A DNA stretch of 64,000 bases from a virus, in IMG/VR virus record IMGVR_UViG_3300022602_000037. One strand, written 5' to 3'. The notes below the pieces were generated by a model, which was given only the letters and a program-made list of their open reading frames with translations, ran no database searches and was not told the origin of the DNA. The translations under genes were made by a program, and so were the position numbers. Numbering within the stretch: the first letter of the stretch is position 1; each line of letters opens with the position of its first letter. This document shows, in pieces, positions 13,744 through 62,184 of this stretch.

Positions 13744-13897
13744 GTATTTTTGGCGCCTTTGGGCCAAAGCATTAGGTGAAAAAGCAGGCAATACGGACAA
13801 AGAATCGGACCGAATTGCTTGCGTTCGTACCTTAATTGTGTTATCATATGTTATTACAAACATTTTTATAATCTTAGGCGTGATTCGTCACTGGTAA
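13697..13897 (+). CDS. small membrane protein
   Basis: WRLWAKALGEK.. followed by a C-terminal TM segment; exact start uncertain. Confidence 0.55.
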   Translation: MKYLNMLVTRLRTKVKYFWRLWAKALGEKAGNTDKESDRIACVRTLIVLSYVITNIFIILGVIRHW

Positions 13898-13905
13898 AGG
13901 CACAC

Positions 13906-14931
13906 ATGAAACGTATAGGCTTCGCATGTAAATGGATTGACCATCCTCATCAGGTCGACGGTATTGGCAAAGATGACGATGCTAAACAGTACAACACAGG
14001 CACAACAACCATTTCTTGGTTAAATAGACAATCAAGAGATGTCGCGGAGCAGAAACTATGGGACCTAATGGTAGGCAATATCGAAGCAACAAGGCAGTTA
14101 GTTGAACGTGTCAGCCAACTTGATGCTCCTCTTCGGATGGTTAGGATTAGCAGTGACATTCTCCCTGCTTATACTCACGCTGACTGTGCTGATTATTGGC
14201 GTAAACCTGACGTTGTATCATACTGCGAAACCCACTTCAAAAGAGTGGGCGATATTGCTAGGAATAACAATGTTCGGTTGTCTATGCACCCTGGGCAGTT
14301 TACTGTCTTGGCAAGTGATAACCCAGGCATTGTCGAGCGTTCGATAGCGGAGTTTGAGTATCATGCAGATATGGCACGTTACATGGGCTACGGTAAATCC
14401 TTCCAGGATTTTAAGATCAATGTACACATCTCGGGTAAACAAGGTCCCGAAGGTATCAGACGTGCCTACGGAAAACTATCGCCAGAGGCCCGCAACTGTA
14501 TTACAATTGAAAACGAAGAAAACGCATGGGGGTTAGATGACTGTCTTACTATTACTGATTTGGTGCCTATCGTTCTTGATATACATCACCATTGGATTCG
14601 CGAAGGCGAATATATTGACGCCAACGATGACCGTGTTAAAAGGGTTGTTGATAGCTGGCGTGGTATGCGGCCTACTTGTCACTATTCAGTTAGTCGTGAG
14701 GATTATCTTATCGACCATGACCGGACTACCGCACCTGTTCATGCCCAACTCCTTCTAGACGGATACAAAAAGCAAAAGCTCAGAGCACATTCGGACTTTT
14801 ACTGGAATACAGCAACGAATGAATGGGCTTTGAGCTTTTTAGAAACACACGATATCATGGCGGAGAGTAAAGGCAAAAACTTAGCTAGTTTTGCTCTATA
14901 CGAGCAGGCTAAGTCTCTTACTCTGCTTTAG
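13906..14931 (+). CDS. uvsE: UV damage endonuclease
   Basis: RIGFAC, RISSDILP, RLSMHPGQFTVL, ITIEN, VLDIHHH, RAHSD. Confidence 0.93.
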   Translation: MKRIGFACKWIDHPHQVDGIGKDDDAKQYNTGTTTISWLNRQSRDVAEQKLWDLMVGNIEATRQLVERVSQLDAPLRMVRISSDILPAYTHADCADYWRKPDVVSYCETHFKRVGDIARNNNVRLSMHPGQFTVLASDNPGIVERSIAEFEYHADMARYMGYGKSFQDFKINVHISGKQGPEGIRRAYGKLSPEARNCITIENEENAWGLDDCLTITDLVPIVLDIHHHWIREGEYIDANDDRVKRVVDSWRGMRPTCHYSVSREDYLIDHDRTTAPVHAQLLLDGYKKQKLRAHSDFYWNTATNEWALSFLETHDIMAESKGKNLASFALYEQAKSLTLL

Positions 14932-25400: not shown

Positions 25401-28400
25401 TGGTTAATACTAGCCAATTAACTGTTGCTTCAACAGCATTACTACAAGTTGGCATGATTATTAGTACTAGCACAACAGGTTCGTTTGTTGAAACAACTAG
25501 TACTAATCCAACTGGTACGACGATTATTCAAAGTATTGATAGTACGACACAATTTACAGTATCACCTGCTGTTTGGGCTCCTGCTGGGACTAGTATTTCA
25601 GCTATCTTAGTAGCGGTGGTATCTAGTATTACTATCACAAATGCTGGTAGCAATTATACTTCTGCTCCTATACTTACATTCAGTGGTGGCGGTGCAACTA
25701 GTCAAGCATTGGCTACCTGTACTATTTCTAATGGTAGTATTAGTACTGTTACACTTGTAAGTCCAGGTTATGGTTATACTAGCACTCCGACTATCACTAT
25801 TAGTGGTAATAGCGGAAGTGCATATAATACTACTACTGGTACTAACATTATTACATTAAATTCTAGTGCTAATCTACAGGTTAATCAAATTATCATATTT
25901 GGTGGATCAGTATTTGGTAATATTCAAGCTGGTGTACAATATTATATTGCAACTATTAATGGTAATCAAATTACAATCAGTGCAAGTTCAGGTGGCGTTG
26001 GTCTAATATCTTTGACCACTGCTAGCGGTCCTAGCATGACTTGGTATACACCTGGAAATGCTATATTAACTCCAGTGCTAACCAATAGTCCAACAGTAGT
26101 TACTACAGTTGTTTCGGGCGTCGACAATCTACAATTAGGTTTAGTATATCCAACCGATCCTGGAACAAGCGGTAGTGTTACTACAACTACTAATGCTACT
26201 GCATCAATTACATCTAGCACAATTAGTAGTGGCGGTGTATTAACTGTTGGTACTGTCGGTAGCGGTACTGTTGCAGTTGGTATGATATTAACTGGTGGAC
26301 CTTCGAGTGGATCTGGTATTGCTCAGATTAGTTCTTATGCTACAACAGCAACTAGTGGTAACGGAACTACTGCAACTATTACATTTGCGGCGCAGTCCTT
26401 TGTGCCTTATGCAGTAGGTCAGACAATTTTTGTATCAGGTGTAACTCCAACAGGCTATAATGGAACTTATGTAGTCACTGCGGCAACAACAAGTTCTGTA
26501 AGTTATTCTAACACAACAACTGGCAGTCAAACTATTGCTGGTACGGTTGCAAGTACTGTTTACACTTATATTACTTCTAATATTAGTGGTAGCGGCAACG
26601 GCTCTACCTGGCAAACTGCAACAAGCCAAGGTAATAATTTTGCTGTTACTTCTTCTTCGATAACAGGTACTAATAATTTATTAGCACTAAGTACTGTTTC
26701 AAATATATCTGTTGGTAATACAATTACATTTGCTGGCACTACATTTGGTGGAGTTAGTGTAACCACTGTGACTGCTGGTAGTTTTGTTGTAGGTCAAACA
26801 TATACTATAACAAGCGTAGGTACTGCTTCAAGTACTACAACTGTTACAAACTTTACATCAATTGGTGCTGCCAACAACAACGTTGGTACAGTATTTACAG
26901 CAACAGGTGCTGGTAGCGGAAGCGGTCAAGCACTAGTGACATATTATATTACTGAAGTAGTCGGTAGTTCTGTAGCTATTGCTCCGGCTAAAGGTAGTGC
27001 TAATACAACATTAACAACAGCATCTGGTGCTACCTTAACATTCTATACTCCAAGTTATGGTTTTGGTACTAGCTATACAGCAACTACATTTAGTAGTGTA
27101 AGCGGTACTGGACCATACCTAGTAACCTTGAATATTCCTACTACTACTGCTCCGTCGACTAGTGTTTACTACTATGTCAGCGGTAATAGTAATGCTTTAT
27201 ACAATGGTTATTGGCAAGCTACTACTAGTTCGACAACCAGTATTACATTAAGTTATCCATATAACCCAGGTACTTATGGAGTTGGTTCTATAACAACAAT
27301 AACTAGAGAATCAACAAGTAGCACAAGTTCAAGCCTAGGTATTAGTAAACCATTTAACCCTAGCACAAGCACAACATTACGTATAGGATATCCTGCCACT
27401 GGCGGTGCTCAGATTACTGTTCGTATTAGTACTTGCCGTGCTACAGGACATGACTTCTTAGATATCGGTACTGGTGGATTTATTACTAGTAACTATCCAA
27501 ATCAAATTTATGGTAATGCGGCTATAGCTTCTAATGACGCTAATGATGTTGTTGAAGAAACTACAGGTCGTGTGTTCCATGTGTCTACAGACCAAAACGG
27601 TATCTTCCGTGTAGGTCGTTTCTTCAAAGTTGACCAAGGTACTGGTACTGTTACATTCTCAGCGTCTATTGCGTTAAGTAACCTAGACGGTCTAGGATTT
27701 AAGCGTGGTGTTGTTGTAAGTGAATTCTCAACAGATCCTTACATGACAGGCAATGCGGCAGATAGTGTTCCAGTTCAATCTGCTGTTAGAAGCTTTATTG
27801 ATTATCGTTTAGGATTAGACTACGGTGGTAATCCAGTTGCTACAAGTAGTTTAATTGGTCCAGGATACTTGGCACTAAATGGTGTCTTAGGTATGAAAGG
27901 CAACTTGAATATGGCAAGTTATCAAATTGGTAACTTGACTATGCCTAATAGTGCTATTACACCTTATGATGCGGCTAATAGAGGTTATGTAGATGTAAAC
28001 GCAAGTGCGCTGAATAATTTATTCAAACTAAATGACCAAGCTATTGGTGCAGTTGCAACATTTGTAAGTTTCAGTAGTACAGGTAATACTGTTACATTGT
28101 CGGGTGTTTTTGGTACTATACTAGTTGGTATGGTTATCAATGGCACTGGATTTACAGGTGGACAGATTGTAACTAGTGTTAATATTACAGCAGGTGCTAC
28201 ACAGTCGGTGGGCGGTAGCGGTACTGTTACTCTAAACAACACCTATAATACAAGCCCAAGTGGCACAATGACATTTAATAACCTAAATAATGGTAATTTA
28301 CATGTATACGATGGTGTTTATGGACAATGGACTAATGTTCCTTTACCAACTACAACTGCTAATGGCAATCAAATTGGTATCACATATACACATGGCACTC

Positions 28401-47713: not shown

Positions 47714-48598
47714 ATGACTGATTATTACCAAACATTAGGTGTTAGCGAAAATGCTAGCCCGGAAGAAATAAAAAAAGCATACCGAACTTTGGCTAATAAA
47801 CACCACCCAGACAAGGGCGGAGATCAAGCCAAATTCAAAGATATTAGTGTTGCCTACGATAATCTAGGCGATCCACAAAAACGTGCAGAATACGACCAAC
47901 AACGACAATTTGGTCATGGGCAACAATTCCATTTCCATACAGGCAATCCTTTTGGCGGTGCAGATCCTTTTGGAGCTATGTTCGGAGCTGGCGGTAGTCC
48001 GTTTCCACAAGGTCATCCATTTAATGATTTATTTGGCAGAGCACGTGGTGGCGGTACAATGCGTAAGAACAGAGATCTAAATATACAATGTACTGTTAGT
48101 TTTGTAGATTCTTATCTAGGAAAACAATTAGAAGCAAACTATAGATTGCCTAGTGGTAAAAATCAAAATGTGGTAATTAATGTTCCGGCCGGTATCACTC
48201 ATGGGGACACTATACGATACCAAGGCCTAGGTGATGATAGTATTCCTAATATCCAGCGAGGGGATTTGAATGTAACTATTTTGGTGCAACCCGATCCTAT
48301 GTTTAGTCGAAATGGGGATGACCTATATACCACATTGTTTATAAATCCTATCGAAGCTATGATTGGTTGTAAGAAATCAATTACCACTATTTCTGGAGGA
48401 TCGATGGATTTAGAAATTCGGCCAGGTGTTGAACATGGTACAGAATTTGCCGCTGGAGGCAATGGATTTACCAATGTAAATACCGGAAGAAAAGGCAGAT
48501 TTGTCACCGTGATCAATATTAGAACACCAGCTATTATCGATCCAGCACTAGTAGCAAGATTGCGAGACATTAATGCTGACATTAATAACATCTCCTAA
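47714..48598 (+). CDS. dnaJ: DnaJ-class chaperone (type II, no zinc finger)
   Basis: DYYQTLGV, HHPDKGG, G/F region, C-terminal domain. Confidence 0.93.
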   Translation: MTDYYQTLGVSENASPEEIKKAYRTLANKHHPDKGGDQAKFKDISVAYDNLGDPQKRAEYDQQRQFGHGQQFHFHTGNPFGGADPFGAMFGAGGSPFPQGHPFNDLFGRARGGGTMRKNRDLNIQCTVSFVDSYLGKQLEANYRLPSGKNQNVVINVPAGITHGDTIRYQGLGDDSIPNIQRGDLNVTILVQPDPMFSRNGDDLYTTLFINPIEAMIGCKKSITTISGGSMDLEIRPGVEHGTEFAAGGNGFTNVNTGRKGRFVTVINIRTPAIIDPALVARLRDINADINNIS

Positions 48599-49070
48599 TC
48601 CAATATTAAAAACTCCTGCTGTTGATTGGGACTTCAGTCAACTGAACGATGCGGCATGGGTTGAAAAAGAAATGATCGAAATTATGAAGAAGTCAAACGG
48701 TCGCGGACTTGCGGCTAATCAAGTTGGACTACTTAAACGTGTATTCATAATTCAGTTAGAAGGGCATCCTACTCCTACTGCCATGTTTAATCCTGTTGTT
48801 AAATTTTCAAGTGAAGTTACAGAGAAGGGAGAGGAAGGGTGTTTAAGTTTTCCCGATCTTTGGTTAAATATTGAACGTCCTGTAGCACTTGATGCCGAAT
48901 ACCTTGACAACACTGGAAAAAAGTGTACAATATCACTTGTAGGCATTGATGCTAGATGTTTTTTACACGAATTAGATCACTTAAATGGAGTTTGTTTTAC
49001 AGATAAAATGAGTCCATTAAAATTAGCATTAGCAATTAAAAAACAAAAGAAAAGGAAACGTAATGGTTGA
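48573..49070 (+). CDS. def: peptide deformylase
   Basis: GRGLAANQVG, EGCLS, HELDHLNG. Confidence 0.95.
   Translation: MLTLITSPNPILKTPAVDWDFSQLNDAAWVEKEMIEIMKKSNGRGLAANQVGLLKRVFIIQLEGHPTPTAMFNPVVKFSSEVTEKGEEGCLSFPDLWLNIERPVALDAEYLDNTGKKCTISLVGIDARCFLHELDHLNGVCFTDKMSPLKLALAIKKQKKRKRNG
48904..48931 (+). promoter_or_regulatory. internal sigma70-type promoter upstream of clpA
   Basis: TTGACA-16 bp-TACAAT inside def. Confidence 0.5.
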
Positions 49071-51342
49071 ACCAAGCGATAATTTACAAGCAGTATTTGA
49101 ACAAGCAATAGATACTGCTAAAAAATTACATCATGAATATTTAACAATAGAGCATCTTTTATTTGCCATGTTAAATGACAGCGATTTCACATCTACTGTT
49201 TCTAAATTTGGCGGGAACCCCGACGAACTAAAAAAGGATTTAACAGATTATTTGCAAAATAAATGTGCAGAAATAACTATTACTGATGTTGTAATAAAAC
49301 CTAAAAAAACACAAGCAGTAGAACGTGTGCTCAATAGAGCGTTTACTCAGACATTGTTTAACGGTCGTCAGCGCATCGAACCCACAGATATTTTTATGGC
49401 TATGATGGTGGAAAAACGTAGCTGGGCACAATATTATATTAACAAAGCACAAATTGATAAAGATAAATTTGCCGATTATTTGAATAATAGTGTCGAAGAA
49501 CAGGAAGAAGAAGGACCCGGGGATCAGCAAGGAGAACGTGCATTAAAAGCATTTACTACTGATCTCAATGATATGGTTACCAAGAAAAAGGTTGATCCAG
49601 TTATCGGTCGTGTGGATGAACTTGAAAATATTGCATTAGCTCTCGGCCGACGTAGTAAAAACAATGTAATCCTTGTGGGCGATCCAGGCGTAGGAAAAAC
49701 TGCCATAGCAGAAGGTCTTGCGTTTAATATAGTTAATGGTGCGGTTCCAGATTTCCTTAAGGATTATAAAGTCTACAGTTTAGATATTTCAGCTATGCTG
49801 GCCGGTAGTAAGTATCGCGGTGACTTTGAAGAACGATTCAAGCATGTTATCAAAGCATTGCAAAAGAAAGGCAAAACTGTCTTGTTTATCGATGAAGCAC
49901 ACATGATTTCAGGTGCAGGATCTGCCAGCAACTCTGCTAACGATCTTGCCAACATGATGAAACCTGCGCTGAGTAAAGGTAATATTAAAGTTGTAGCATC
50001 GACTACTTGGGAAGAATATCGTAAACACTTTGAAAAGGATCGTGCGTTAATGCGTCGTTTCCAACGTATTACTGTCGACGAGCCTACTCAAGAAATGACT
50101 TATAGCATATTACAGGGTATTAAAAAGTATTACGAAGGTTTTCATAACGTTAAAATTCGTAATGATGCTATCCATGCGGCCATCAAGTTAAGCGTCAAAT
50201 ATCAAGCAGATAAAAAATTACCAGATAAGGCTATCGATTTGATTGATGTAGCTTGCAGTCGTTTTAATTTGAAACTTGCTGACGAACGTGTTATTGGTGA
50301 ACACGAAATTCAATATGAACTTGCTAAAATGATTCAAATGCCTGAAGAAAAAATTATGGAAACCGAATCAAGCAATCTTGCTAGCCTACAGGATAATTTA
50401 CAATCCGAAGTTTATGGACAAGATATTGCAATTACAGAAATTGTAGATAAGATCATGGTGGCACAAGCTGGCCTTAAATCCGAAAACAAACCAATCGGTA
50501 GTTTTGTATTCATGGGCCCAACTGGCACTGGTAAAACTGAAACAGCTAAATCTTTAGCTAAGAATTTAGGTGTTAAGTTGTTGCGATATGATATGAGTGA
50601 ATATCAAGAAAAGCACAGCATCAGTAAGTTGATTGGTAGTCCTCCAGGTTATGTTGGCTTTGAAGAGAACGCTGGCCTATTGATAACTCAAATTCAAGAA
50701 TCTCCTAATGCTGTTTTATTACTTGATGAAATTGAAAAAGCACATCCCGATGTTATGACTGTGCTATTACAAGTTATGGATAACGGTTTCATCACTGGGT
50801 CAAACGGCAAACAAGCTGATTGTCGTAATTTGATTCTTATCCTAACTACTAATGCTGGTGCTCAAGATGCTGAAAAGAATGCCATTGGGTTTGGCGGACA
50901 AGAAAAAACCTACAGCGATGCCGATTTGAAGAAATTCTTGACTCCTGAATTCCGTAATCGTTTAGATGGTATTGTTACATTTAGCAAACTAACTAAAGAT
51001 ACAATGATTCGTATTGTTATTAAATTTATTGACGAATTACGTGCTCAAGTTAAAGAAAAAGGTATTAAAGTCAAGATAGATAAGGAAAGTACTAATTGGC
51101 TTATTACCAAAGGGTTTGATAGCAAGATGGGTGCTCGTCCGTTACAACGTGTTATTGATAAAGAAATCAAACGTCCGTTGGCAAAACTTATGTTGTTTGG
51201 CGAGCTAAAGAATGGCGGAGTATTATCTATTAACGTTAACAATGATCAATTAGTGTTAGTACCAACTCCTAAAGAAAATAAAATAGCACTACTTACTGTT
51301 GACTCTACTAATGTTATTACAGAAGGCCAGGATGTTTTATAA
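49063..51342 (+). CDS. clpA: ATP-dependent Clp protease ATPase subunit ClpA
   Basis: Clp N-domain; two AAA+ modules (GDPGVGKT, GPTGTGKT); no ClpB middle domain; IGF loop (AIGFG). Confidence 0.93.
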   Translation: MVEPSDNLQAVFEQAIDTAKKLHHEYLTIEHLLFAMLNDSDFTSTVSKFGGNPDELKKDLTDYLQNKCAEITITDVVIKPKKTQAVERVLNRAFTQTLFNGRQRIEPTDIFMAMMVEKRSWAQYYINKAQIDKDKFADYLNNSVEEQEEEGPGDQQGERALKAFTTDLNDMVTKKKVDPVIGRVDELENIALALGRRSKNNVILVGDPGVGKTAIAEGLAFNIVNGAVPDFLKDYKVYSLDISAMLAGSKYRGDFEERFKHVIKALQKKGKTVLFIDEAHMISGAGSASNSANDLANMMKPALSKGNIKVVASTTWEEYRKHFEKDRALMRRFQRITVDEPTQEMTYSILQGIKKYYEGFHNVKIRNDAIHAAIKLSVKYQADKKLPDKAIDLIDVACSRFNLKLADERVIGEHEIQYELAKMIQMPEEKIMETESSNLASLQDNLQSEVYGQDIAITEIVDKIMVAQAGLKSENKPIGSFVFMGPTGTGKTETAKSLAKNLGVKLLRYDMSEYQEKHSISKLIGSPPGYVGFEENAGLLITQIQESPNAVLLLDEIEKAHPDVMTVLLQVMDNGFITGSNGKQADCRNLILILTTNAGAQDAEKNAIGFGGQEKTYSDADLKKFLTPEFRNRLDGIVTFSKLTKDTMIRIVIKFIDELRAQVKEKGIKVKIDKESTNWLITKGFDSKMGARPLQRVIDKEIKRPLAKLMLFGELKNGGVLSINVNNDQLVLVPTPKENKIALLTVDSTNVITEGQDVL

Positions 51343-51969: not shown

Positions 51970-51977
51970 GATAAATA
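51970..51977 (+). promoter_or_regulatory. late promoter GATAAATA
   Basis: At the head of the putative internal-protein cluster. Confidence 0.65.
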
Positions 51978-52023
51978 CTCTAACCGCAGAGTTTTCTGCT
52001 GAACTATTAAAACGGGCTTAAAA

Positions 52024-52395
52024 ATGCGCATACATGAACTATTAGAAGGTAAAGATTTCGATGACGAAAAGTTTGTCAAAAAAACCGGTGACAAACGAGA
52101 AATCGATTTTGATTTACCCGACGATCTTATACATTTTATGCATAACGATGACGATGTATATCGACGTCATCTTTATCCTAGTATAGCAGATTGTATTGAT
52201 CGATATAAAGATAAAAAACCCACTCATCTTAAAATTTTCAAACCTGCTGTAGAACGCAGTTATGAAGTATATGTCAAGAAGTTCCCAATAAGAGAATTAT
52301 CTGACAAATTAGATGAAAAAATGCTTGAACGTATCTGTAACAAACTTCATTCTGACACAATTCAAGATATCAAAGATGGTGCTTACAAGGATTAA
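52024..52395 (+). CDS. hypothetical protein, putative capsid-internal
   Basis: N-terminal MRIHELLE tag. Confidence 0.7.
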   Translation: MRIHELLEGKDFDDEKFVKKTGDKREIDFDLPDDLIHFMHNDDDVYRRHLYPSIADCIDRYKDKKPTHLKIFKPAVERSYEVYVKKFPIRELSDKLDEKMLERICNKLHSDTIQDIKDGAYKD

Positions 52396-52397
52396 TT

Positions 52398-53639
52398 GTG
52401 TTATTAAGAGAATTGTTTATCCGTGAAACTACTAAACCTGCTGAAACAAAAAAGAAACAAGTAGGCAGAGCTTTCAATCATCCTGAAGATTTAACTTTTA
52501 TGAATGGAAGTAAAGGTGCAATAACCGCGCTTGAACATATTAAAAAAATTGCCAATGATTCCGGAGCAGTTAGATTAAAATGGGACGGTGCTCCTCAGGT
52601 ATACTGGGGGTGGCATTGGAATGACCAAACTGGGCAACATGAATTTGTAACTGCTAATCACAACGGTTGGTTGCGCGGCGGCGGCGGCACTAGTGATGTA
52701 AGTGAATTCACTAATCAACACGGTATCTATAATTTTATTGCTAATCGCAGTGGCAATGCAAAAACTCCAGAAGAACAACAACAAAGAGAAATATTTGCCA
52801 AAGAATTTAGTTTTTTACATCCTGTATTAGAAAAAGCAACTAAAAGGCCTAAAAAAGGCAAAAGTTTATTTTTCTATGCCGACGGATTATTTTTACAACC
52901 TCCAAGAGTAGATACCAACGGTGTTTATAATCTGCATCCTAATCCAAAAGGCAATACAGTTTATCATATAGCACAAGATACCGAACTAGGACAACGTATA
53001 AGTCGCGCAAGAGCTATGATGGTTGGACACGGAATGTTTACACAGTTTGGTGCGCCAGATGAGGCACAACAGGCCGTAGAAGATTTTAGTCCTTATATAG
53101 ACGATTCAATTACTGATATAATTATTCTTGGACCATATTATACACAAATACAACCACAGGTAGATACCGACGCTATTGATCAAGTTGAACAAAGTATTAA
53201 AGCTCATGGTCACGAAATCGATAGCTTCTTAGCACCAATATCCGGTGTAAGTGGATTTAAGAATATAGTATATCGTTATGTAAACACCATGGCCAAAGAA
53301 GGAAATTTAGCAAACGTAGCAAATAATTTTATGTCGTGGGCACAAACAAATACTAATGTAGTAAGTGCTAATCAATATGAAAAAATTGCAGAGCGTCTAA
53401 AACAATTCCCTGGCGGATTAACTGCTATGTTTAATTTGTTTTCAGATATTATGCAATTAAAAAATCAGATACTTGCACAGTTAGATGCAGATCCTGGAGA
53501 AATAAAAGTAAGTAATCCAGAAGGATGGGTACACTATGACAAAAAAGGTGACGACCATATTAAGCTGGTGCCACGTCATGCTATCGAAACACCTCACGGA
53601 ACAACTATTCCAGCATGGGTGCCTGGGGGCGCAAAATGA
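52398..53639 (+). CDS. RNA/DNA ligase-like nucleotidyltransferase (DUF6267-like)
   Basis: LKWDGAP (motif I), YADGLF (III), PEGWV (IV), IKLVPR (V). Confidence 0.6.
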   Translation: MLLRELFIRETTKPAETKKKQVGRAFNHPEDLTFMNGSKGAITALEHIKKIANDSGAVRLKWDGAPQVYWGWHWNDQTGQHEFVTANHNGWLRGGGGTSDVSEFTNQHGIYNFIANRSGNAKTPEEQQQREIFAKEFSFLHPVLEKATKRPKKGKSLFFYADGLFLQPPRVDTNGVYNLHPNPKGNTVYHIAQDTELGQRISRARAMMVGHGMFTQFGAPDEAQQAVEDFSPYIDDSITDIIILGPYYTQIQPQVDTDAIDQVEQSIKAHGHEIDSFLAPISGVSGFKNIVYRYVNTMAKEGNLANVANNFMSWAQTNTNVVSANQYEKIAERLKQFPGGLTAMFNLFSDIMQLKNQILAQLDADPGEIKVSNPEGWVHYDKKGDDHIKLVPRHAIETPHGTTIPAWVPGGAK

Positions 53640-54694
53640 GATTAAGACAGATATTTGAAACTCAGAATCGTAAAGTTGACGCGGCATTTTGTTTTGGACG
53701 TTTTAATCCAGCACATCAAGGTCATATGAAAGTATGGGAAGCTGTTAAGCATGCTGGACGTCATTGGTATATTGGAACCAATCCAACTACTATAGGGCCT
53801 AACGATCCATTACCTTTTGATATTAAAACAGCATGGATGACCGCTATTGATCCTAGTATTAAGGGTCACGTACTAGGAGAACAAAGTATTGTAACACTTG
53901 CTTCTAAAATTTATCAAGATGTAGGCGAAGGTGCCGTTATAGCCTATGTAACAGATAGTCAAGATTGGGCGTGGAGTGGAAAACTATTACATCAGTATAA
54001 TGGCAAAGAAAGTAATCATGGCTATTACAATTTTTCAAATATAATTCATATAGAAAGTCCTCGTGTAACAAGTGCTACAGAATTACGAAATGCCGCCCGA
54101 TCAGGCAATGAAGATTTATTTTATCAACTGGCCGGAGTTGATCCTAGTTTAACTATTGCTGGAAAAACTTATTTTGAAACTGTAGTAGAGGCATTAGGAC
54201 AACATCCTGAAAAGGTTAAACGTGCCAAGAAAGCAAAAGCTGTAGCAGAAGAATCAAATTCAATTAAATATGCTAATAAGGTAATAAGAGAGATGAGAGC
54301 ACAAGAATTTATGCGCAAGCAACTAGCAGAAGGCGATGTTCCGTATGCTGGTAAGGGTTCTGAAAAATTGCACCATGTTCATATTCAAGCACTTAAAAAT
54401 GCTATGAGTATTCCTAATATTAGCATGAACAAAGCTAATGGAAGTCCATATATGCAATATCGTTTTGGTATTGCATTAGCAAATCCTACACAAACTCCAA
54501 GAGCTGGGGCTATGAGTGGTGATCCTTTAATTACTGCATATACAGAAGAAGAATTAGAAAAAGTAAAACTTACAGCTAAAATGATGGGTGCAGGTTCTAT
54601 TACACATTTAAGCGATGGCCGTAGTAATGAAGCAGAAGGCGGTAACAAAGTTAGCCCTGTAAGAAAACAAAAGAAAAACAAGTACGGTATATAA
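53636..54694 (+). CDS. cytidylyltransferase-like (HxGH) protein fused to a KKNKYGI-family domain
   Basis: FGRFNPAHQGH, NDPLPF, SATELR; internal MRAQEF module. Confidence 0.75.
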   Translation: MRLRQIFETQNRKVDAAFCFGRFNPAHQGHMKVWEAVKHAGRHWYIGTNPTTIGPNDPLPFDIKTAWMTAIDPSIKGHVLGEQSIVTLASKIYQDVGEGAVIAYVTDSQDWAWSGKLLHQYNGKESNHGYYNFSNIIHIESPRVTSATELRNAARSGNEDLFYQLAGVDPSLTIAGKTYFETVVEALGQHPEKVKRAKKAKAVAEESNSIKYANKVIREMRAQEFMRKQLAEGDVPYAGKGSEKLHHVHIQALKNAMSIPNISMNKANGSPYMQYRFGIALANPTQTPRAGAMSGDPLITAYTEEELEKVKLTAKMMGAGSITHLSDGRSNEAEGGNKVSPVRKQKKNKYGI

Positions 54695-55074
54695 TGCGAG
54701 CAAAAGAATTTATCACTGAACATACTGGCAAACATCACGAGCACCATGCGACGGCGGCGCAGGGTACACGCAAGGCAAGAGATCCAGGAGGATTTTATCC
54801 TAGCTATCATCAGATGCGTACAGGTATAGTGCTCGGTATGATGGACGGATCTGGTAAAACACCTAAACCACAACCTCCGCATGAAAGCTGGATGGGACCG
54901 TTTTGGACACAGCATCCTTATACTGAAGTAGAACATAATATGTTTAGAGATGCTCGTAAAATTATTCCTACAGATGATCACGAAGTTTTACCTTGGCATA
55001 AAAGCAAAGAACCAGATGATACGCATAAAGTAAGTCCAGTAGCAGGCAAAAAGAAAAACAAGTACGGTATATAA
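54669..55074 (+). repeat. identical 26-bp direct repeat at gene ends
   Basis: AAAAGAAAAACAAGTACGGTATATAA at 54669-54694 and 55049-55074; degenerate copy at 55581-55603. Confidence 0.85.
54694..55074 (+). CDS. KKNKYGI-family paralog
   Basis: MRAKEFITE ... SPVAGKKKNKYGI. Confidence 0.75.
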   Translation: MRAKEFITEHTGKHHEHHATAAQGTRKARDPGGFYPSYHQMRTGIVLGMMDGSGKTPKPQPPHESWMGPFWTQHPYTEVEHNMFRDARKIIPTDDHEVLPWHKSKEPDDTHKVSPVAGKKKNKYGI

Positions 55075-55075
55075 C

Positions 55076-55603
55076 ATGCGAGCCAAAGAATTTTTATCCG
55101 AACAACACAGAGTAGAAGTTAACCCACGTTCTAAATCTGATGTTAGACAGTTGGGTCAAAAACAGTTATCTAAGGAATATCATCCTAAAAAATTTAAGTA
55201 CGGCGAACGAGGTGTTCCTATAGGCGTTGATCCTCACGATCCGCATAATCAAACTTTAAGCAATACAGAATACGGTAGCAAGCGTGGAGATATGGCTGTA
55301 GAATTCCAAGCTAGTTTGCCAGGAGCATTCAGTGTTGAAAATTTAGCTAGTGATTTCTACGGAGTATACAGATTAGGCATGGGGTTAGCTGCCGGCGATC
55401 GTAATATTGCCGCTGCCGATAATATAGGCAAGCATCCATTTTTTGTGCCTTTTGCTCCTGAAGAGCATGATAAGTTTGACAAAGAAATCAAACGTCAAGG
55501 TCATAAAACTAAATTAAGAACAACTCAACAGAGTTTGGAAATATCAACAGTGAATACAGTAACACCTGTAGCAAAAATTAAAAAGAACAAATACGGTATC
55601 TAA
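55076..55603 (+). CDS. KKNKYGI-family paralog
   Basis: MRAKEFLSE ... TPVAKIKKNKYGI. Confidence 0.75.
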   Translation: MRAKEFLSEQHRVEVNPRSKSDVRQLGQKQLSKEYHPKKFKYGERGVPIGVDPHDPHNQTLSNTEYGSKRGDMAVEFQASLPGAFSVENLASDFYGVYRLGMGLAAGDRNIAAADNIGKHPFFVPFAPEEHDKFDKEIKRQGHKTKLRTTQQSLEISTVNTVTPVAKIKKNKYGI

Positions 55604-56044
55604 ATGGAACACAATAAATATCATCTAGCATTAAAGACAGCATTTGCATCGGAGTTCAGCTTTTATCTTAAAAGTCATAACTTCCATTGGAATGTTGAAG
55701 GACCATTATTTGGTCAACTACATGAATTATTTGAGCGTATCTATACCGAAGTCTATGGTAGTATAGATACATTTGCCGAACATTTACGTGCTTTACAAAT
55801 ATATACACCAGCTAGTTTGCACAAATTCAGTATGCTTACCGCAGTAAGTGATGAAGATAGTGTTCCCCAATGGAGTGAAATGTTACAAGAATTACTAGCA
55901 GACAGCGATAAAATGGCCGAGATATTTCGTATTACATTTGATATGGCCGAACATCATGGAGATCACGGTCTAAGTAACTTCCTAGCAGATCGTCAAGATG
56001 CACATAAAAAGCATAGTTGGATGTTAAGAGCGAGTTTGAAATAA
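55604..56044 (+). CDS. dps: Dps / mini-ferritin
   Basis: HNFHWNVEG..F..LHELFE..Y, D..AE.LR, K..WML. Confidence 0.92.
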   Translation: MEHNKYHLALKTAFASEFSFYLKSHNFHWNVEGPLFGQLHELFERIYTEVYGSIDTFAEHLRALQIYTPASLHKFSMLTAVSDEDSVPQWSEMLQELLADSDKMAEIFRITFDMAEHHGDHGLSNFLADRQDAHKKHSWMLRASLK

Positions 56045-56274
56045 TGGATGAACTAGCACGTCTTAAGAAGTTAGCAGGCATTAATGAGTTTAAGGGCCTA
56101 CAACCTTATGGCGGAAGCAATATCAGTATAACTGGTACAGAGAAAGCAAAGATTATGCGTGAACAAAACATACAACCAGGAACTGAAGAATGGTTTAAGT
56201 TATGGTTTAGCTTACCTAAATTTATGAATGGCGAACGTGCTGTAGGCACTGGATACAGAGGAATTAAAAAATGA
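56044..56274 (+). CDS. hypothetical protein
   Basis: MDELARLKKLAGINE; TAATG overlap with dps. Confidence 0.7.
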   Translation: MDELARLKKLAGINEFKGLQPYGGSNISITGTEKAKIMREQNIQPGTEEWFKLWFSLPKFMNGERAVGTGYRGIKK

Positions 56275-57242
56275 AAATTAATGATCTTTTAACTGAAGAA
56301 GAATACGACTATTACAGAGATTACAAAAACGGACTTATTTCTTATGAAGAGTATCAAGATCTTGTTAAACAGTTCAAAGAAAGAGAACGAGCTCACCACC
56401 ATGCATCTGCTAATCACGACCGCGGTCCTTGGTACATCCGTGTAGATGGTAAAATTTACAAACAAAAAGGTCAAGCCAAAGTATTTGATTGGAAAAAAGG
56501 TGCTAATAATTACGCTCTTGCTATGATTAAAAATAGACCCGATCTAGATGGCAAAATTAAACTTACTAAAAATCCTGTAGACAATCAAGAACAAATAACA
56601 CCTCCTAACACACTAGAAGAAAAATGGAGTCAAAAATACAAGAGTAGTATCAATTGTAGTCACCCTAAAGGTTTCAGTCAACGAGCTCACTGTGCAGGCA
56701 AGAAAAAACATAACGAAAGTATGCAGGTAATAGAAATGACCTGCCCAGATTGCGGTATGTGCGAAGCACACAGTAATATGACACTTCAAGAAATTAAAAA
56801 AGGTCAAAAGGATAGCAATGGGTTTACCAAGTGCTGGCCAGGACATCATGCGGCTGGTACTAAGAAGGGTAAGAACGGAGGCATAGTTCGTAACTGTGTA
56901 CCTAACGAAAATGTGGCGGAAGGCGGTGGAGCTCAACAGGCAGCGATTGCGATTGCTAAGAAAAAATCCGGAAAATATGACAAAGAAGGAAAACGCATTA
57001 AGGAATCGGCCACAGTAGGTGCTACAAGCAGTGCCAATATAGGTACAGTAGTAAGCCCTCATTTAGCTATAGGAAAGAAAAAGGGCAAAAAATCCTATAC
57101 AGGAACACCCGGACATAGTGGAACAACAGCACCTAAACCCCCTAAAATTATCCAGAAAAAGAAAAAAGACGGCACTGCTGTCAACGCATTAGATATGAAA
57201 GGCACCAGTTTATTTGGTGGGCCTAGTATTAAAAGACGCTAA
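56271..57242 (+). CDS. modular putative capsid-internal protein
   Basis: MKINDLLTEE; short Cys-containing and basic modules separated by xxE sites. Confidence 0.7.
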   Translation: MKINDLLTEEEYDYYRDYKNGLISYEEYQDLVKQFKERERAHHHASANHDRGPWYIRVDGKIYKQKGQAKVFDWKKGANNYALAMIKNRPDLDGKIKLTKNPVDNQEQITPPNTLEEKWSQKYKSSINCSHPKGFSQRAHCAGKKKHNESMQVIEMTCPDCGMCEAHSNMTLQEIKKGQKDSNGFTKCWPGHHAAGTKKGKNGGIVRNCVPNENVAEGGGAQQAAIAIAKKKSGKYDKEGKRIKESATVGATSSANIGTVVSPHLAIGKKKGKKSYTGTPGHSGTTAPKPPKIIQKKKKDGTAVNALDMKGTSLFGGPSIKRR

Positions 57243-57268
57243 ATACATAAAGACAACGGAGTATACTC

Positions 57269-58804
57269 ATGCCAGCAGAATTAGACAATCAAGAACCAGA
57301 ATTAGATGCACAATCACCTGAAATGAATGAACCAGAAATGGATCAAGACATGGGTCCAGAACCAATGGACAATGATAATGCAGTTATTGGTTTACACGGT
57401 GACGAGGGTGATCGTGAAGGTGCTATGGCCAAAGCTGATTTATTCAAATTAGCAAACTATTCACACAAATTATATCAACAATTGAACGACGAAGATCAGT
57501 TAGAATCATGGGTTCAAGCAAAGATTACCAAAGCCGCAGACTATATTGCTAGCGTATATCACTATTTAGAATATGAAATGAAGTTCAGTGAGTATGGCCA
57601 TCATTTAGACAACAGCGACACATTAAGCGAAGGACAAAAAATGCGATTAAAAGAAATGTTAGCTGAAGCTAAAGATAAGATGAAAGATTTGAAAAAATCA
57701 CAAGCCGAAAAGATGAAAGAAAAGAAAGTATCAGAAGGTATTATGAGTGGCGGTGAACACGAATGTGCTGAATGTGGCGGAACTGGTGTTGTTTATCATC
57801 CAGGTGTTCAGCCTAGTGAACGTGCAAAAAAATTAGCCGCTAAACACAATCGAGAAACTCGTGCGCATTATGCCGCTCACAAGCGTTTGCAAGCTGAAGA
57901 AGGTGCAGTAGACGAAAACTTTGATGGCGAGCGTGGTGCAGATCAAGATACACCAAGTAAGTTTAACAAACAAAAAACTTCAACTGGTACACGTTATACA
58001 CGTAAGTCTAGTACATTCAGCGATGAGCATGATGGCGGATCTGGTATTAAGAGCCATGCCAAAGCTAAATCAAGCGATGAAAAGAAAGCTGACAAATCAA
58101 ACGATATCAAACTACCTAAGCACAGTGGAAACACATGGGGCATGAAAGGTGGCGAGAAGTTTGGTAAGAAAATGGAAGAAGGTAAGAAAGCTGATAAAGA
58201 TTATGACGGCGACGGCAAAATCGAATCAGGCAAAGATGAATATTTAGGTAGCAAAATCCGTGCCGCTAAGAAAGCTGGCAAACTAAAAGAAGCACAAAAA
58301 TGTAACGAATGTGGTTATATTATGGAAAAGTGCAAATGCGATCAATTAGATGAAGCTAAACCAAGTGCAGGTCTAAGCAAGGCTAAAAAGTCTGCTGTAG
58401 TTAAAGATGCTAAAGCAGGCAAAGACATTGGTAAGCCAGGTAAGAGCTTTGACAAAGTAGCTAAGGCTGCTGGTGGTGGTAAGAAAGGCGAGAAGATTGC
58501 CGCTGCCGCTATGTGGAAGAACATCAAAGAAACTACTGCATATCTAGCTGAAAAGAAAAAGAAAGAAAAAATGACTGATGAGAATTTGACAGTTGTTCCA
58601 AATCCATCAGGTGCTAAGGATGCTGAAGAAGCTAAAAAGTTAGGTGCCGCAATGCCAGCACCAGCAGGTAAAAAAGATCCAATTAGTGAATCAGCACGTT
58701 TACGTGAAATAACAGGTCGTTTATTGCAAAATGAAAAACCAGTAGTTGCTGAATCACGTGAAGTTGATCAAATCCGTGCATTGACAAAACGCCTATTGGG
58801 ATAA
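57269..58804 (+). CDS. charged putative capsid-internal / scaffold-like protein
   Basis: CTAAATA at 57239; WVQAKITKAADYI, CAECGGTG, DxDxDG; many L/V-x-E sites. Confidence 0.7.
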   Translation: MPAELDNQEPELDAQSPEMNEPEMDQDMGPEPMDNDNAVIGLHGDEGDREGAMAKADLFKLANYSHKLYQQLNDEDQLESWVQAKITKAADYIASVYHYLEYEMKFSEYGHHLDNSDTLSEGQKMRLKEMLAEAKDKMKDLKKSQAEKMKEKKVSEGIMSGGEHECAECGGTGVVYHPGVQPSERAKKLAAKHNRETRAHYAAHKRLQAEEGAVDENFDGERGADQDTPSKFNKQKTSTGTRYTRKSSTFSDEHDGGSGIKSHAKAKSSDEKKADKSNDIKLPKHSGNTWGMKGGEKFGKKMEEGKKADKDYDGDGKIESGKDEYLGSKIRAAKKAGKLKEAQKCNECGYIMEKCKCDQLDEAKPSAGLSKAKKSAVVKDAKAGKDIGKPGKSFDKVAKAAGGGKKGEKIAAAAMWKNIKETTAYLAEKKKKEKMTDENLTVVPNPSGAKDAEEAKKLGAAMPAPAGKKDPISESARLREITGRLLQNEKPVVAESREVDQIRALTKRLLG

Positions 58805-58808
58805 TCCA

Positions 58809-59687
58809 ATGGACATGAAGCGCATACTACAGGCGATAGACGGTGTTGCTACAAAGCCTGTAGCAGGTGCTAATGACATGGCTAAATTTTTATCTATAGT
58901 AGATAAAAATGCCAGCATACAGTTATTACAAGAAGCTAAAAGTCCACACAAAGTAACATTGCCAGTACAAATGGCAATGCAACACTATCAAAAAGAAGAA
59001 ACTATTCAAAAACCAGTAGGGCGTGATAGCGTTATTAAAAAATACTTTCACGAAGCTGAACAAGAACTCCAAGAGTATCAAGTAGAACGTAAGCAATTAA
59101 TGAACCAATATGCATCAATTATTGCCGAACGTGTATTAATGAAAGAATCTGTTACTACTAACGAAAATGAAATACCCGGACATAGTATGGGATTCACTGG
59201 CGGAGTAGGACCAGGCATGGGAGATTATGAAGTGGATGAAATGTCTGTAATATTAGACAAAGACAATCCTATCAAGAGTAAAATAAATCACAAGAGCAAT
59301 CCAGGAAGTATAGAATATCGCATTATGCGAGCACGTGGGCAATTAAAAGATCTTGCGCAACAAGCAGAAAGCAATGAATTAATTGTATGGGAAAGTATTG
59401 CTAGACATTTTCCCGAATTAGCTATGAATATCGAGGAAATTAGACACGGCATCGAAGAACTAGCTAAGATACGCAAAGGCGGTGGACGTAGAGTTCACAA
59501 TATTCCAAAAGAGATAGGCGAAAATGCGATAAACACAGTCAAACAAGCCAATGCTCAAAAACGTGCAATCAAGCCAAAAAAAACAACAACAGCCTGTAAA
59601 AGTAATCAAAGACAAGTTGGAGTGCAAAATAAAAACGGCCAAGTAGTACCTAAATGTGCTGTGGTTAAAGGACCCATAGGAAAATAA
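58809..59687 (+). CDS. putative capsid-internal protein
   Basis: MDMKRILQAID; repeated xxE sites; C-terminal Cys pair. Confidence 0.65.
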   Translation: MDMKRILQAIDGVATKPVAGANDMAKFLSIVDKNASIQLLQEAKSPHKVTLPVQMAMQHYQKEETIQKPVGRDSVIKKYFHEAEQELQEYQVERKQLMNQYASIIAERVLMKESVTTNENEIPGHSMGFTGGVGPGMGDYEVDEMSVILDKDNPIKSKINHKSNPGSIEYRIMRARGQLKDLAQQAESNELIVWESIARHFPELAMNIEEIRHGIEELAKIRKGGGRRVHNIPKEIGENAINTVKQANAQKRAIKPKKTTTACKSNQRQVGVQNKNGQVVPKCAVVKGPIGK

Positions 59688-59688
59688 T

Positions 59689-62184
59689 ATGAACTTAAGA
59701 GACTTAATGAACAAACTGGATACTATTGCAGAAGCAGATGATGCTAGAGCACAGTATGATAAATTCAAAGCAGATGATGCTAAGGCAGGAGCCATTGCAC
59801 AAGTTAAAAAAATGCTGTCACCTAACGGTATGCAAAACTTCATCGATCCTAAAGATGGTATTGTTAAATGGCAGGAACAAATGAACGGAGAATCCGGAGG
59901 TCCTGGTAGTATTAGAGAATTTCCATTTGACTGGTATAAGAAAGGACAAAATGCTGATTTTTTCAATATTCTAAAAACAGCAGGGTTGGAACTAGTTCCG
60001 GTTGATAGAAAAAATTTGTTTGGTACAAGTCAAGTAGTAGGTATTAAAGGTGGTCCACAAGCATTAGCTGATTTAGGTAAACCAAAACCACCAACAGACG
60101 GCGGTGGCGGTAAACCTACAGCAGGTGCATCTACACTTACCGCAGATGCCGCGGCACTAGAAGCATTGACAAATCAATTAGATGCATTGCTAGGCGCAGG
60201 GGGCGGTGGTAAACCAGACGTTAAACCTCCTGTAACACATTTACCTCCAAATCCTCCACCAAATTGGAATCCTCCAATCAATCCTAAAACTAAAAAGCCG
60301 TTCAGTTGGGGTGAGTTTGCGGCCGCAGTAGCTGCCGGAGCTATGCCAGGTGCAATGGTAGGTGGACTACCAGGTGCTGCCATAACCGGTACTGCCGGTG
60401 GAGCAGTTGATGCATATCATCAGCTACATAACGAAAGTATTGCTAAGACACTAGCAGAGAGTTTTGGGTATCAACTAGACGACAAACAATTGAATGAAGC
60501 AGACATTAACCCATTCAATGGATTGAGTGGAATAGGAGGCCTAGGAGGTTCTCGTCCTACATCAACCATGCGAGTAGGAGGAACAAACTGGACTGCTACA
60601 GCTCATGATCCTAACTTATTCAGCAACGGACAAGGCGCTACCAAGACCTATCAAGATCTAGCTAAAGGCGGAGATGTCGCAACCCATACAGCAGGCGATG
60701 TAGAAAAAATTGCCGCTAAAACAGCAATACCAATTGAAAAAGATATCGGAACAGCTACAGCTAAAACTGTTGCTAAAACAGGCGCTAAAGATGTTATTAA
60801 GAAATTAATCCCCGGTGTTGGTCTAGTAGTTGGTACTATCGATGCTATCAAACGTGCTCAAGAAGGTGACTGGAAAGGTGCCGCAATGGCTGGTGCAAGT
60901 GGTCTATTAAGTTTAGTACCCGGTGTTGGAACAGCCGCTAGTTTAGGACTAGATGCCGCTAACATATATCGTGACTACAAAGCTGGAAAGTTTGGTGGTG
61001 GCGATGCCGGTGGATCTGGTGGTGCTCCTGGAGGTACAACCGGCGGTGATCAAAAGCTACAACAGCTACAAAAAATTATCGGTGCTAAACCAGATGGCCT
61101 AATGGGCCCAGAAACTAAAGCCAAGTTACAAGCATGGCAACAAAAGAATGGTCTAACACCAGATGGAATGCCTGGTCCACAAACTTATGGCAAAGCTGGA
61201 ATCAAAGAGACAACACAAACAGTTGCAGAAGGTATTCGCAATTTACAAGAACGTTTAGCATTAATTGAAACTAAAGCTACAATCAAAGAAAGTATTGCTG
61301 GTCGCCGTTATTTCCTAGATGAAAATTGTTTTATGTTTGACGAAAATGGTGAACAGGTTACAGATCTAGTTACTATTGCCGCTATTAACGAAGCCTACGT
61401 AAACGGTGAGGTTGAAGTAGACGAAGGTATTTGGAGTGACATAGCTTCAGGTGCCGCAAAATACGGCAAAGGTGCATATGATGCCGCTAAAGATTTTGGC
61501 GGTGCATTATTAAAGGGCGGTCGTAATCCAGAAGCGGCTGAACGTTTGGCCAAGTGGTCTGGAGTATCCGGTGCTAAGAAAGCAGGATTAAAAACTGCGG
61601 CAACTATTGCTAAAAATCCAATTAAGTCAGCGGCAGCCGCTACAGCATTAGGTGTAGGCGGTGCGGCCGCATTGGGTGGTAACAGTGGCAATACTCCAGA
61701 TACAACTAATACAGGCAATGGTGGCGGTGGTGTCGGTGGTGGCGGTGGCGGTGGTTCACCAGCCGATGCAACAGATGCAGTAACTCCAAATGCAGGTGCT
61801 GTAGATCCAAAAATTGCAGATTTAGAAAAACAAATCAAAGCATTGATGGCAAAACATGGCGATGACGATCAAGAAGCGCAAAACAGCCCTATTTGGCAAC
61901 AAGCAACATCTCATGCACAAGCTGTAATAGACAAAGCCGATAAAGTTAATCCAGCTCAAACTACAGCAGATCAACAGGCAGCTCAAACAGTTAAACCTGG
62001 ATCAGAAACACCAACAGCATCTACTACAACAGGCGCTGGAGGTGCTGGTAGTCCATCCGGTACTACTGGAGTAGTTCCTAAAAAAGGACCACCAGATTTA
62101 GATGGTAAATCACAGATTCCCGGTGTCAAAAACGAAGACTCTAGTGCAGAATTAGCTCGTTGGTTACAAATCGCTCGCGGTTAA
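59689..62184 (+). CDS. large Gly/Ala-rich protein with a peptidoglycan-binding domain, putative ejection protein
   Basis: LQ..IGAKPDGLMGPET...WQQKNGLTPDG.PGPQT (PG_binding_1-like, ~61050-61200); glycine-zipper hydrophobic segments. Confidence 0.7.
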   Translation: MNLRDLMNKLDTIAEADDARAQYDKFKADDAKAGAIAQVKKMLSPNGMQNFIDPKDGIVKWQEQMNGESGGPGSIREFPFDWYKKGQNADFFNILKTAGLELVPVDRKNLFGTSQVVGIKGGPQALADLGKPKPPTDGGGGKPTAGASTLTADAAALEALTNQLDALLGAGGGGKPDVKPPVTHLPPNPPPNWNPPINPKTKKPFSWGEFAAAVAAGAMPGAMVGGLPGAAITGTAGGAVDAYHQLHNESIAKTLAESFGYQLDDKQLNEADINPFNGLSGIGGLGGSRPTSTMRVGGTNWTATAHDPNLFSNGQGATKTYQDLAKGGDVATHTAGDVEKIAAKTAIPIEKDIGTATAKTVAKTGAKDVIKKLIPGVGLVVGTIDAIKRAQEGDWKGAAMAGASGLLSLVPGVGTAASLGLDAANIYRDYKAGKFGGGDAGGSGGAPGGTTGGDQKLQQLQKIIGAKPDGLMGPETKAKLQAWQQKNGLTPDGMPGPQTYGKAGIKETTQTVAEGIRNLQERLALIETKATIKESIAGRRYFLDENCFMFDENGEQVTDLVTIAAINEAYVNGEVEVDEGIWSDIASGAAKYGKGAYDAAKDFGGALLKGGRNPEAAERLAKWSGVSGAKKAGLKTAATIAKNPIKSAAAATALGVGGAAALGGNSGNTPDTTNTGNGGGGVGGGGGGGSPADATDAVTPNAGAVDPKIADLEKQIKALMAKHGDDDQEAQNSPIWQQATSHAQAVIDKADKVNPAQTTADQQAAQTVKPGSETPTASTTTGAGGAGSPSGTTGVVPKKGPPDLDGKSQIPGVKNEDSSAELARWLQIARG

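Follow-up and report, generated by a model that had tools for sequence, protein, structure and literature searches.

In bacteriophage T4, the internal proteins IPI, IPII, IPIII and Alt carry a capsid-targeting sequence (CTS) that is removed by the prohead protease gp21 (Mullaney and Black 1996, as reviewed in PMC9026906 and PMC3012670). The protease cuts after L/I-x-E (PMC9026906, sections 2.5-2.6; PMC3012670), and the first 10 residues of IPIII suffice for encapsidation in T4 (PMC9026906; PMC3012670). In the jumbo phages phiKZ and SPN3US, inner-body and ejection proteins are processed by gp175/gp245 (PMC5694885, PMC7411985, PMC13282480). Within the literature searched, the T4 CTS is described only for T4 and close relatives, and in a 2026 review of jumbo phages phiKZ is the only one for which co-injected proteins are discussed. 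Here we describe a cluster of 11 genes at positions 52024-62184 of a 64,000-nucleotide (nt) stretch of viral DNA, IMG/VR record IMGVR_UViG_3300022602_000037 (hereafter the window), in which six proteins begin with a short tag resembling the T4 CTS. Our analysis suggests that the cluster is probably a rapidly evolving locus, expressed late, whose products are head-internal proteins of the T4 type, among them a ligase-like protein and a putative HxGH nucleotidyltransferase. The tag kind itself is known from T4; what appears, on balance, to be new is the presence of T4-style capsid-targeting tags in a jumbo-phage lineage, where they would carry new cargo.

As with the T4 internal proteins, a short N-terminal tag ending in (L/I)-x-E is found on unrelated, fast-evolving proteins, relatives in the lineage encode a gp21-family protease and an (L/I)xE-rich scaffold, and a late-type promoter box is present. 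The tag of the fourth protein of the cluster (P4), MRAKEFITE, shares an EFI-x-E core with the T4 sequence MKTYQEFIAE (KEFITE vs QEFIAE); the latter, cited by the initial annotation of the window, is present at two T4 genes in a back-translated search (the IPII/IPIII tag). Unlike the T4 internal proteins, those described here are assigned to a roughly 370-kb jumbo phage of the PA5oct/Atu_ph07 group by family-B DNA polymerase (PolB), not to a T-even phage, and are known from their genes alone. They are encoded by one coupled 11-gene operon, the predicted cargo includes a ligase-like DUF6267 protein and a putative HxGH nucleotidyltransferase, the C-terminal ends of several members are fixed as well, and a second motif copies the scaffold C-terminus. 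A likeness to phiKZ and SPN3US is also seen: in these jumbo phages, numerous packaged proteins, some of them encoded together in one cluster, are cut after Glu by a distant relative of gp21. The propeptides of phiKZ and SPN3US are long and follow an S/A/G-x-E rule, whereas the tags here span about 8-10 residues, follow the T4 rule and belong to a different lineage.

A gene cluster with recurrent N-terminal tags

The cluster comprises 11 plus-strand genes, P1 to P11, whose stops and starts overlap or abut. The genes (lengths in amino acids, aa) and their promoter-like boxes are as follows.

51971..51979, + strand: late-promoter-like box GATAAATAC, 53 nt upstream of P1
52024..52395, + strand: P1, 123 aa, tag MRIHELLE followed by G, helical protein
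52398..53639, + strand: P2, 413 aa, GTG start, tag MLLRELFIRE, DUF6267, predicted ligase-type nucleotidyltransferase fold
53636..54694, + strand: P3, 352 aa, tag MRLRQIFE, predicted HxGH nucleotidyltransferase fused to a P4/P5-like unit
54694..55074, + strand: P4, 126 aa, tag MRAKEFITE, C-terminus KKNKYGI
55076..55603, + strand: P5, 175 aa, tag MRAKEFLSE, C-terminus KKNKYGI
55604..56044, + strand: P6, 146 aa, Dps/ferritin-like, without tag
56044..56274, + strand: P7, 76 aa, N-terminus MDELARLKKLAGINEF, resembling the scaffold C-terminus
56271..57242, + strand: P8, 323 aa, tag MKINDLLTE, mosaic basic Cys-module protein
57240..57246, + strand: second late-type box TAAATAC, 29 nt upstream of P9
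57269..58804, + strand: P9, 511 aa, acidic N-terminus, Lys-rich, C-terminus IRALTKRLLG
58809..59687, + strand: P10, 292 aa, N-terminus MDMKRILQAIDGV, a helix like the second motif
59689..62184, + strand: P11, 831 aa, N-terminus MNLRDLMNKLDTIAE, PG_binding_1, Gly-rich, C-terminus ELARWLQIARG

The initial annotation had quoted seven N-termini as examples of a tag shared by mostly unrelated genes. All seven are present at their genes (P1, P2, P3, P4, P5, P8 and P11), and their (L/I)xE endings are LLE, IRE, IFE, ITE, LSE, LTE and IAE for P1-P5, P8 and P11, respectively. The tag is indeed commoner in the cluster than in the other genes of the window: the strict pattern ^M[KRL][ILA]x[EQD][LIF][LIF]x{0,2}E, which was derived post hoc from the tags themselves and has a background of 0 to 1.3e-4 per residue position, matches 6/11 cluster genes (P1, P2, P3, P4, P5 and P8) vs 0/49 others (Fisher 9e-6), and a looser a-priori rule, an (L/I)xE ending at residue 8-10 with a background of 2-4% at internal Met positions, matches 6/11 vs 2/49 (p 2e-4). 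A strict regular expression in the style of the initial annotation (rxA) was judged too narrow. P6, P7 and P9 lack the tag, and P10 (MDMKRILQAIDG) and P11 feature an N-terminal helix motif of another, longer kind. When the first 15 residues are removed, the only relatives among the protein bodies are the P3 C-terminal part, P4 and P5 (E 3e-6 to 2e-4), and every other pairing has an E value of at least 0.03; the description of mostly unrelated genes therefore holds save for these three. Single-linkage clustering of the locus proteins merged mosaic and low-complexity families and was unusable for counting tagged families.

Conservation and selection of the tag

The tag persists over large evolutionary distances. 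The P2 family (DUF6267) comprises 231 homologue clusters at E <= 1e-5, and among the 120 listed, at 37-89% identity, 92 start with [M/V](L/F)LRE(L/I)F, 7 with MRLRELF and 18 with a sequence of the MRAxEF type, as in P4 and P5; the remaining three are over-long open reading frame (ORF) calls with the tag inside. A variable stretch follows the tag, and (L/I)xE occurs within the first 11 residues of 115/120 of these listed clusters. In the P3 family, M-x-L-(R/N)-x-(L/I/M)-(F/L/I)-E is found in 120/120 clusters, and it stays at the extreme N-terminus even where some 50 residues are inserted ahead of the HxGH fold. MRIxELLE is kept in 78 distinct homologues of P1, down to 40% identity and with position 4 free, and is replaced by MLLRELDE or MKIRELFE in the most distant ones.

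Across 36-43 distinct orthologous starts, the conserved tag residues are encoded by many synonymous codons; Leu6 of P2, for example, uses six codons, and the codons of Phe7 are split 19 to 17. Free synonymous variation at invariant residues implies selection on the peptide and not on RNA or DNA, and an RNA- or DNA-level cause of the conserved starts is thereby ruled out. On these alignments, the tag is a selected peptide signal, one variant of which can take the place of another from lineage to lineage. The GTG start of P2 is present in all 36 distinct orthologous start sequences examined. The AlphaFold2 (AF2) model of P2 (predicted local distance difference test, pLDDT, 88.8) places a helix at residues 3-8 and a disordered linker at 9-23 (pLDDT below 50), after which a confident fold begins; in the P1 model (pLDDT 78.8) the tag is at low confidence.

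Prohead protease and scaffold in related phages

The same gene order is found in uncultured IMG/VR relatives, whose P2 proteins are 89% (L003), 77% (L013 and L005) and 66% (L009 to L012) identical to that of the window. A 223-kb contig within the last group, G001, is estimated to be 60% complete, which puts the genome at roughly 370 kb. By size and polymerase, the phage that bears the cluster is apparently T4-related, with a jumbo genome of about 370 kb, and falls in the PA5oct/Atu_ph07 PolB group. The phage's own protease gene lies outside the window, and the protease was thus read in relatives: Peptidase_S77 is detected at E about 1e-27 in G001 (94110-94736), G002, G004 and G005, all of which have an orthologous cluster, and in PA5oct. 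Other relative contigs are 18-55% complete, and the absence of S77 from them is uninformative.

The scaffold proteins provide a signature of the cleavage rule that is independent of the tags. The G001 scaffold features 19 (L/I)xE sites in 367 aa, or 5.18 per 100 aa, and ranks 1/202 among ORFs with a median of 0.69; the PA5oct scaffold has 19 in 368 aa (5.16 per 100 aa, rank 2 in the genome), and T4 gp22 has 16 in 269 aa (5.95 per 100 aa, the largest value among ten T4 genes counted). The motif is dense in the proteases as well. Scaffolds this densely packed with the motif indicate that the lineage has retained the T4 gp21 cleavage rule, as far as can be read from the proteins themselves. The major capsid proteins of G001 (91805-92980; L019 7806-8981, minus strand) and PA5oct (85850-87037) possess A-L-(L/T)-E-G-L at residues 15-20, a candidate maturation site between E and G; T4 gp23 has PLLEG at a similar position.

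Tagged proteins in cultured and uncultured relatives

In PA5oct, the strict pattern matches 1/386 ORFs. This is gp150 (EST35_0150), a 73-aa protein starting MKINDIITE, whose gene lies between those of the gp20-like portal and the protease, the place occupied in T4 by gp67 and gp68. Its annotation is that of a structural protein, identified in virions by electrospray ionization tandem mass spectrometry (ESI-MS/MS). Another protein positive by mass spectrometry (MS), gp205, starts MKLFEVFTLYE. The PA5oct paper reports 93 virion-linked products, and does not discuss propeptides or N-terminal processing.

Similar tags occur near the head genes of other phages. G001 has a single strict match outside the cluster, located within a few kb of its portal gene. 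Genes of this contig with a looser tag or with the second motif described below match PHROG 'virion structural protein' families, one such protein being headed by the looser tag MKSFKQYLTE. Moreover, the modules of P8 and P9 are common to small basic proteins encoded in the head/packaging modules of the T4-like cyanophages S-SM2, Bellamy and P-TIM68; the N-termini of these small proteins are MKTLKQFLKE, MKSFKQFQE or MMKSFIDFSE.

A second terminal motif

The scaffolds end in ELRRLAGIK (PA5oct), IRKLAGLKF (G001) and VYAKVASRF (T4 gp22). A helix resembling these C-termini is found at the N-terminus of P7 (ELARLKKLAGI) and at the C-termini of P9 (IRALTKRLLG) and P11 (ELARWLQIARG), and in a relaxed form at the N-termini of P10 and P11. 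The relaxed pattern, whose statistics are post hoc, matches 3 N-termini in the window vs 0.12 expected, and 3/3 are in the cluster. In G001 the motif ends two further proteins, one of which belongs to a virion-structural PHROG family, and in PA5oct it heads the MS-positive gp203 (RLAG). We hypothesize that this motif may be a second, scaffold-mimicking address into the prohead. Short terminal helices are also used as cargo-loading peptides by encapsulins and as C-terminal coat-binding helices by P22-type scaffolds. The RLAG(I/L) motif is similarly shared by presumed cargo and may, purely by analogy, bind the inner face of an HK97-fold shell; unlike those helices, it is found at either end of the protein.

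The predicted cargo

P2 matches Pfam DUF6267 (E 3.7e-18), a family not mentioned in the literature searched. Its motif I, K-x-D-G, comprises K61, D63 and G64, which are invariant in 36 sequences at 41-89% identity. Most of the top structural matches of the P2 model are adenylyltransferase domains of RNA or DNA ligases, with NgrRnl, REL1, T4 Rnl2 and T7 ligase the best of them; comparison with ligases by VIA gives Z values of only 5.3-6.8 over 170-200 residues, and Foldseek E values are at least 0.03. Sequence searches of the PDB with P2, P3 and P11 were uninformative, with no match for P2. We therefore describe P2 as ligase-like on the basis of its model, and as a putative member of the superfamily. 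A canonical ATP-dependent DNA ligase with an OB domain is encoded at 3078-4403, which makes P2 the second, atypical ligase-like gene of the window.

The N-terminal domain of P3 matches a PHROG cytidyltransferase (E 1.4e-13) and contains FGRFNPAHQGH and SATELR; Pfam CTP_transf_like (PF01467) scores 20.3 bits, below its cut-off of 21, and models of NMNAT match only at E about 7e-4. The domain is fused at residue 220 (54293) to a P4/P5-like unit, which has its own MRAQEF start directly after V-I-R-E and ends KKNKYGI. The segment 54293-55603 thus comprises three tandem units that start MRA(Q/K)EF and end V(S/T)PVxxxKKNKYGI, the first fused in frame to the P3 enzyme. The stop/start junctions of P3/P4 and P4/P5 are near-identical in DNA sequence, and all three units start ATG(A/C)GAGC(A/C)(C/A)AAGAATTT. 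The same C-terminal motif is found in 65/120 P3-family clusters.

P8 is a mosaic of small, basic, Cys-containing modules such as SINCSHPKGFSQRAHCAG and CWPGxxxxGTKK. Its C-terminus is conserved (...GGPSIKRR), and across its family, which includes L050, L159 and L160, both ends are fixed (the tag and ...GGPxIKRR) while the middle is hypervariable, at total lengths of 158-323 aa. P9 features 10 (L/I)xE sites vs 4.6 expected, and its residues 48-117 match both SSM2_109 of S-SM2, located between gp16 and gp17, and gene 191 of Flavobacterium phage immuto, near terminase and portal. P6 is Dps/ferritin-like (Pfam Ferritin E 4e-22; NCBIfam Dps families) and the most conserved member of the cluster, with 81-86% identity in three closer relatives and 63% in L146. 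P11 matches PG_binding_1 (Pfam, E 5.6e-10) and PHROG peptidase/endolysin families. The P1 model resembles only uncharacterised viral proteins and has no PDB match, and nothing usable was returned for P10 or P5 by the Protein Atlas. T4 IPI acts against the GmrSD defence; homology of the cluster proteins to known anti-defence proteins was not found, and a counter-defence role for them would be speculative.

A proposed route into the prohead

Together, we propose that P1, P2, P3, P4, P5 and P8 carry a T4-type capsid-targeting propeptide, a short amphipathic helix of the form M-(K/R/L)-h-x-(E/Q/D)-h-h-x-E. The tag would dock the protein on the scaffolding core during prohead assembly, a gp21-family prohead protease would then remove it after (L/I)-x-E, and the mature protein would be left trapped in the head with the DNA. 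P7, P9, P10 and P11, with a copy of the scaffold C-terminal R-L-A-G-(I/L) helix at one end, would probably enter the prohead by a second route. In the phage of the window, we infer packaging, cleavage, ejection and function from these features. A bolder form of the proposal holds that this two-address system (N-terminal CTS plus a copy of the scaffold C-terminal helix) loads 10/11 operon proteins into the head, and that the DUF6267 ligase-like and NMNAT-like pair arrives with the DNA, where it could repair or re-synthesise host-attacked nucleic acid or a nucleotide cofactor; this we offer as speculation, and consider rather unlikely as a whole.

The initial annotation had presented the entire cluster as payload probably packed in the head and matured by the protease. 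Its core suggestion, a T4-like CTS with gp21-type removal, is consistent with the conservation and exchange of the tag, the protease in relatives, the (L/I)xE sites of the scaffold and the MS-detected tagged protein of PA5oct. The suggestion that enzymes are included agrees with the tags on P2 (ligase-like) and P3 (a putative HxGH nucleotidyltransferase). As a statement on the whole cluster it would apply to the tagged P1-P5 and P8, but less well to the untagged P6, to P9 and P10, which look core/scaffold-like, or to P11, which is perhaps a tail or baseplate protein. A 'greatly expanded' arsenal overstates the case, as there are 6 clear tags, or up to 10 with the second motif.

Several observations weigh against the proposed route. 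The position three before E10 is frequently occupied by F or Y, and not by L/I, in members of the P2 family, which leaves the real cut site uncertain. PA5oct has a homologue of the P3 enzyme, but this protein lacks the tag and is absent from the virion, and the identity of the cargo is therefore not transferable between phages. L003, the closest relative, has no S77 match in its 104 kb (28% complete). The second motif is not statistically significant in PA5oct. The Dps-like P6 is part of the operon without carrying a tag, and residues 368-429 of P11 match a protein encoded beside the gp26-like baseplate-hub gene of phage ACP17, suggesting that P11 may be tail- or baseplate-associated.

Should the tags function as they do in T4, the genome of an uncultured giant phage could reveal which proteins it brings into the cell. 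The large, uncharacterised DUF6267 family would then be placed in the cell as a ligase-like enzyme borne in the capsid, and other phage heads could be loaded with foreign proteins by means of the tags, as is already done with T4. Should the two-address reading be true, the packaged proteome of uncultured T4-related phages could be predicted from sequence alone. PA5oct offers a direct route to test these proposals, being cultured, with the protease present and a tagged protein in its virion.

Alternative explanations

The tagged proteins may enter the prohead and yet be mostly core or scaffold-accessory material, like T4 gp67 and gp68, that is degraded and expelled in maturation and never becomes payload. 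In keeping with this, (L/I)xE sites in P9, P10 and P11 occur at 2-2.7 times the expected number, P10 is poorly structured (Atlas pLDDT 0.51), P7, P9, P10 and P11 mimic the scaffold C-terminus, and PA5oct gp150 is encoded exactly at the gp67/gp68 position. The likeness to the T4 core proteins gp67, gp68 and gp22 thus spans the position of gp150, the low-complexity, cleavage-motif-rich nature of P9 and P10, and the identity of the second motif with the scaffold C-terminus; unlike the genes of those proteins, the cluster lies far from any head module, adjoins the DNA polymerase gene and encodes folded enzymes. The P2 and P3 enzymes are near background in internal (L/I)xE sites and P2 has an invariant catalytic motif, as fits intact, active cargo, while gp150 is still detected in mature virions. 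This explanation fits P9 and P10, which look more like core/scaffold-type material than effectors, and not the enzymes; for the tagged proteins at large we judge it unlikely.

The remaining alternatives assign the N-terminal motif to processes other than head assembly. Immediately upstream of the cluster, at 47714-51342, are genes for DnaJ, peptide deformylase and a full-length ClpA (NCBIfam E 2e-262), with ClpA and DnaJ at the same place in 5/5 relatives compared, and a genuine ClpP is encoded at 1640-2230. ClpA is able to read N-terminal signals, and the motif could thus be a recognition tag for timed degradation or unfolding by the phage ClpA/ClpP or DnaJ instead of a capsid-targeting signal. 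Adjacency is, however, the sole link to Clp: the tags end in the prohead-protease motif, and tags of this class also occur on a PA5oct head-module protein whose presence in virions is established by MS, and on proteins from the head/packaging modules of T4-like cyanophages, which makes a Clp or DnaJ tag very unlikely. That the shared ends reflect mere gene duplication and cassette recombination via repeated junction DNA, with a functionless peptide, is suggested by the near-identical DNA at the P3/P4 and P4/P5 junctions, but this covers only the array of the P3 C-terminal part, P4 and P5. P1, P2, the P3 N-terminus and P8 encode the same residue classes with different codons, and synonymous variation at invariant residues across more than 100 orthologues signifies peptide selection; we regard duplication by itself as highly improbable. 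The tag might instead be a leader for a radical-SAM/SPASM modifying enzyme, three adjacent radical-SAM genes, two with SPASM, being located in the window at 5480-9099. These genes are 43-47 kb upstream of the cluster, and no SPASM domain is found in the complete genomes of PA5oct, S-SM2 and Bellamy or in G001 and G005, all of which have tagged proteins. We rejected this scarcely credible explanation for want of co-occurrence with tagged genes. The two SPASM domains lie on the N-terminal side of the radical-SAM core, an unusual order, and a DUF6071 gene follows. The preferred reading remains that of head-internal proteins carrying a T4-type CTS.

Operon layout and genomic setting

The late-promoter-like box upstream of P1 resembles the T4 late box TATAAATA. 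The initial annotation had placed late-type TAAATA promoters before the genes; this applies to the operon heads only, as the cluster contains two TAAATAC boxes (51972 before P1; 57240 before P9) and its genes are otherwise translationally coupled. The cluster therefore looks like one or two late operons, as judged by these boxes, and not like a series of genes with one promoter each. [G/A/C]TAAATAC is also found 24-53 nt upstream of the fibre-like genes at 11145 and 30478, of gene 38465 and of a membrane-protein gene at 46802. A scan for sigma-70 promoters and terminators returned no more matches than in shuffled sequence.

Downstream of the cluster, the family-B DNA polymerase (62620 onward) shows 42-50% identity to its counterparts in the jumbo phages PA5oct, Phosso, Vibrio 2.275.O and Atu_ph07, and the window is part of a large tailed phage. 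Searched at the nucleotide level, 50,697 phage records contained no match to the cluster, tblastn searches with P2 and with P10 found nothing, and P10 has no homologue among phage isolates. By these searches no cultured phage has the cluster, and virion proteomics is for this reason not directly transferable. When compared in relatives, the genes of the cluster show far more rapid divergence than those for ClpA and PolB at its flanks; T-even internal-protein loci likewise diverge fast (PMC3012670). Elsewhere, the window encodes a QueD/PTPS-like protein (13216-13743) and a UvdE UV-endonuclease (13819-14931), and at 16451-30250 features a single ORF of 4599 aa with a fibre-like N-terminus, followed by genes of 1559 aa and 930 aa.

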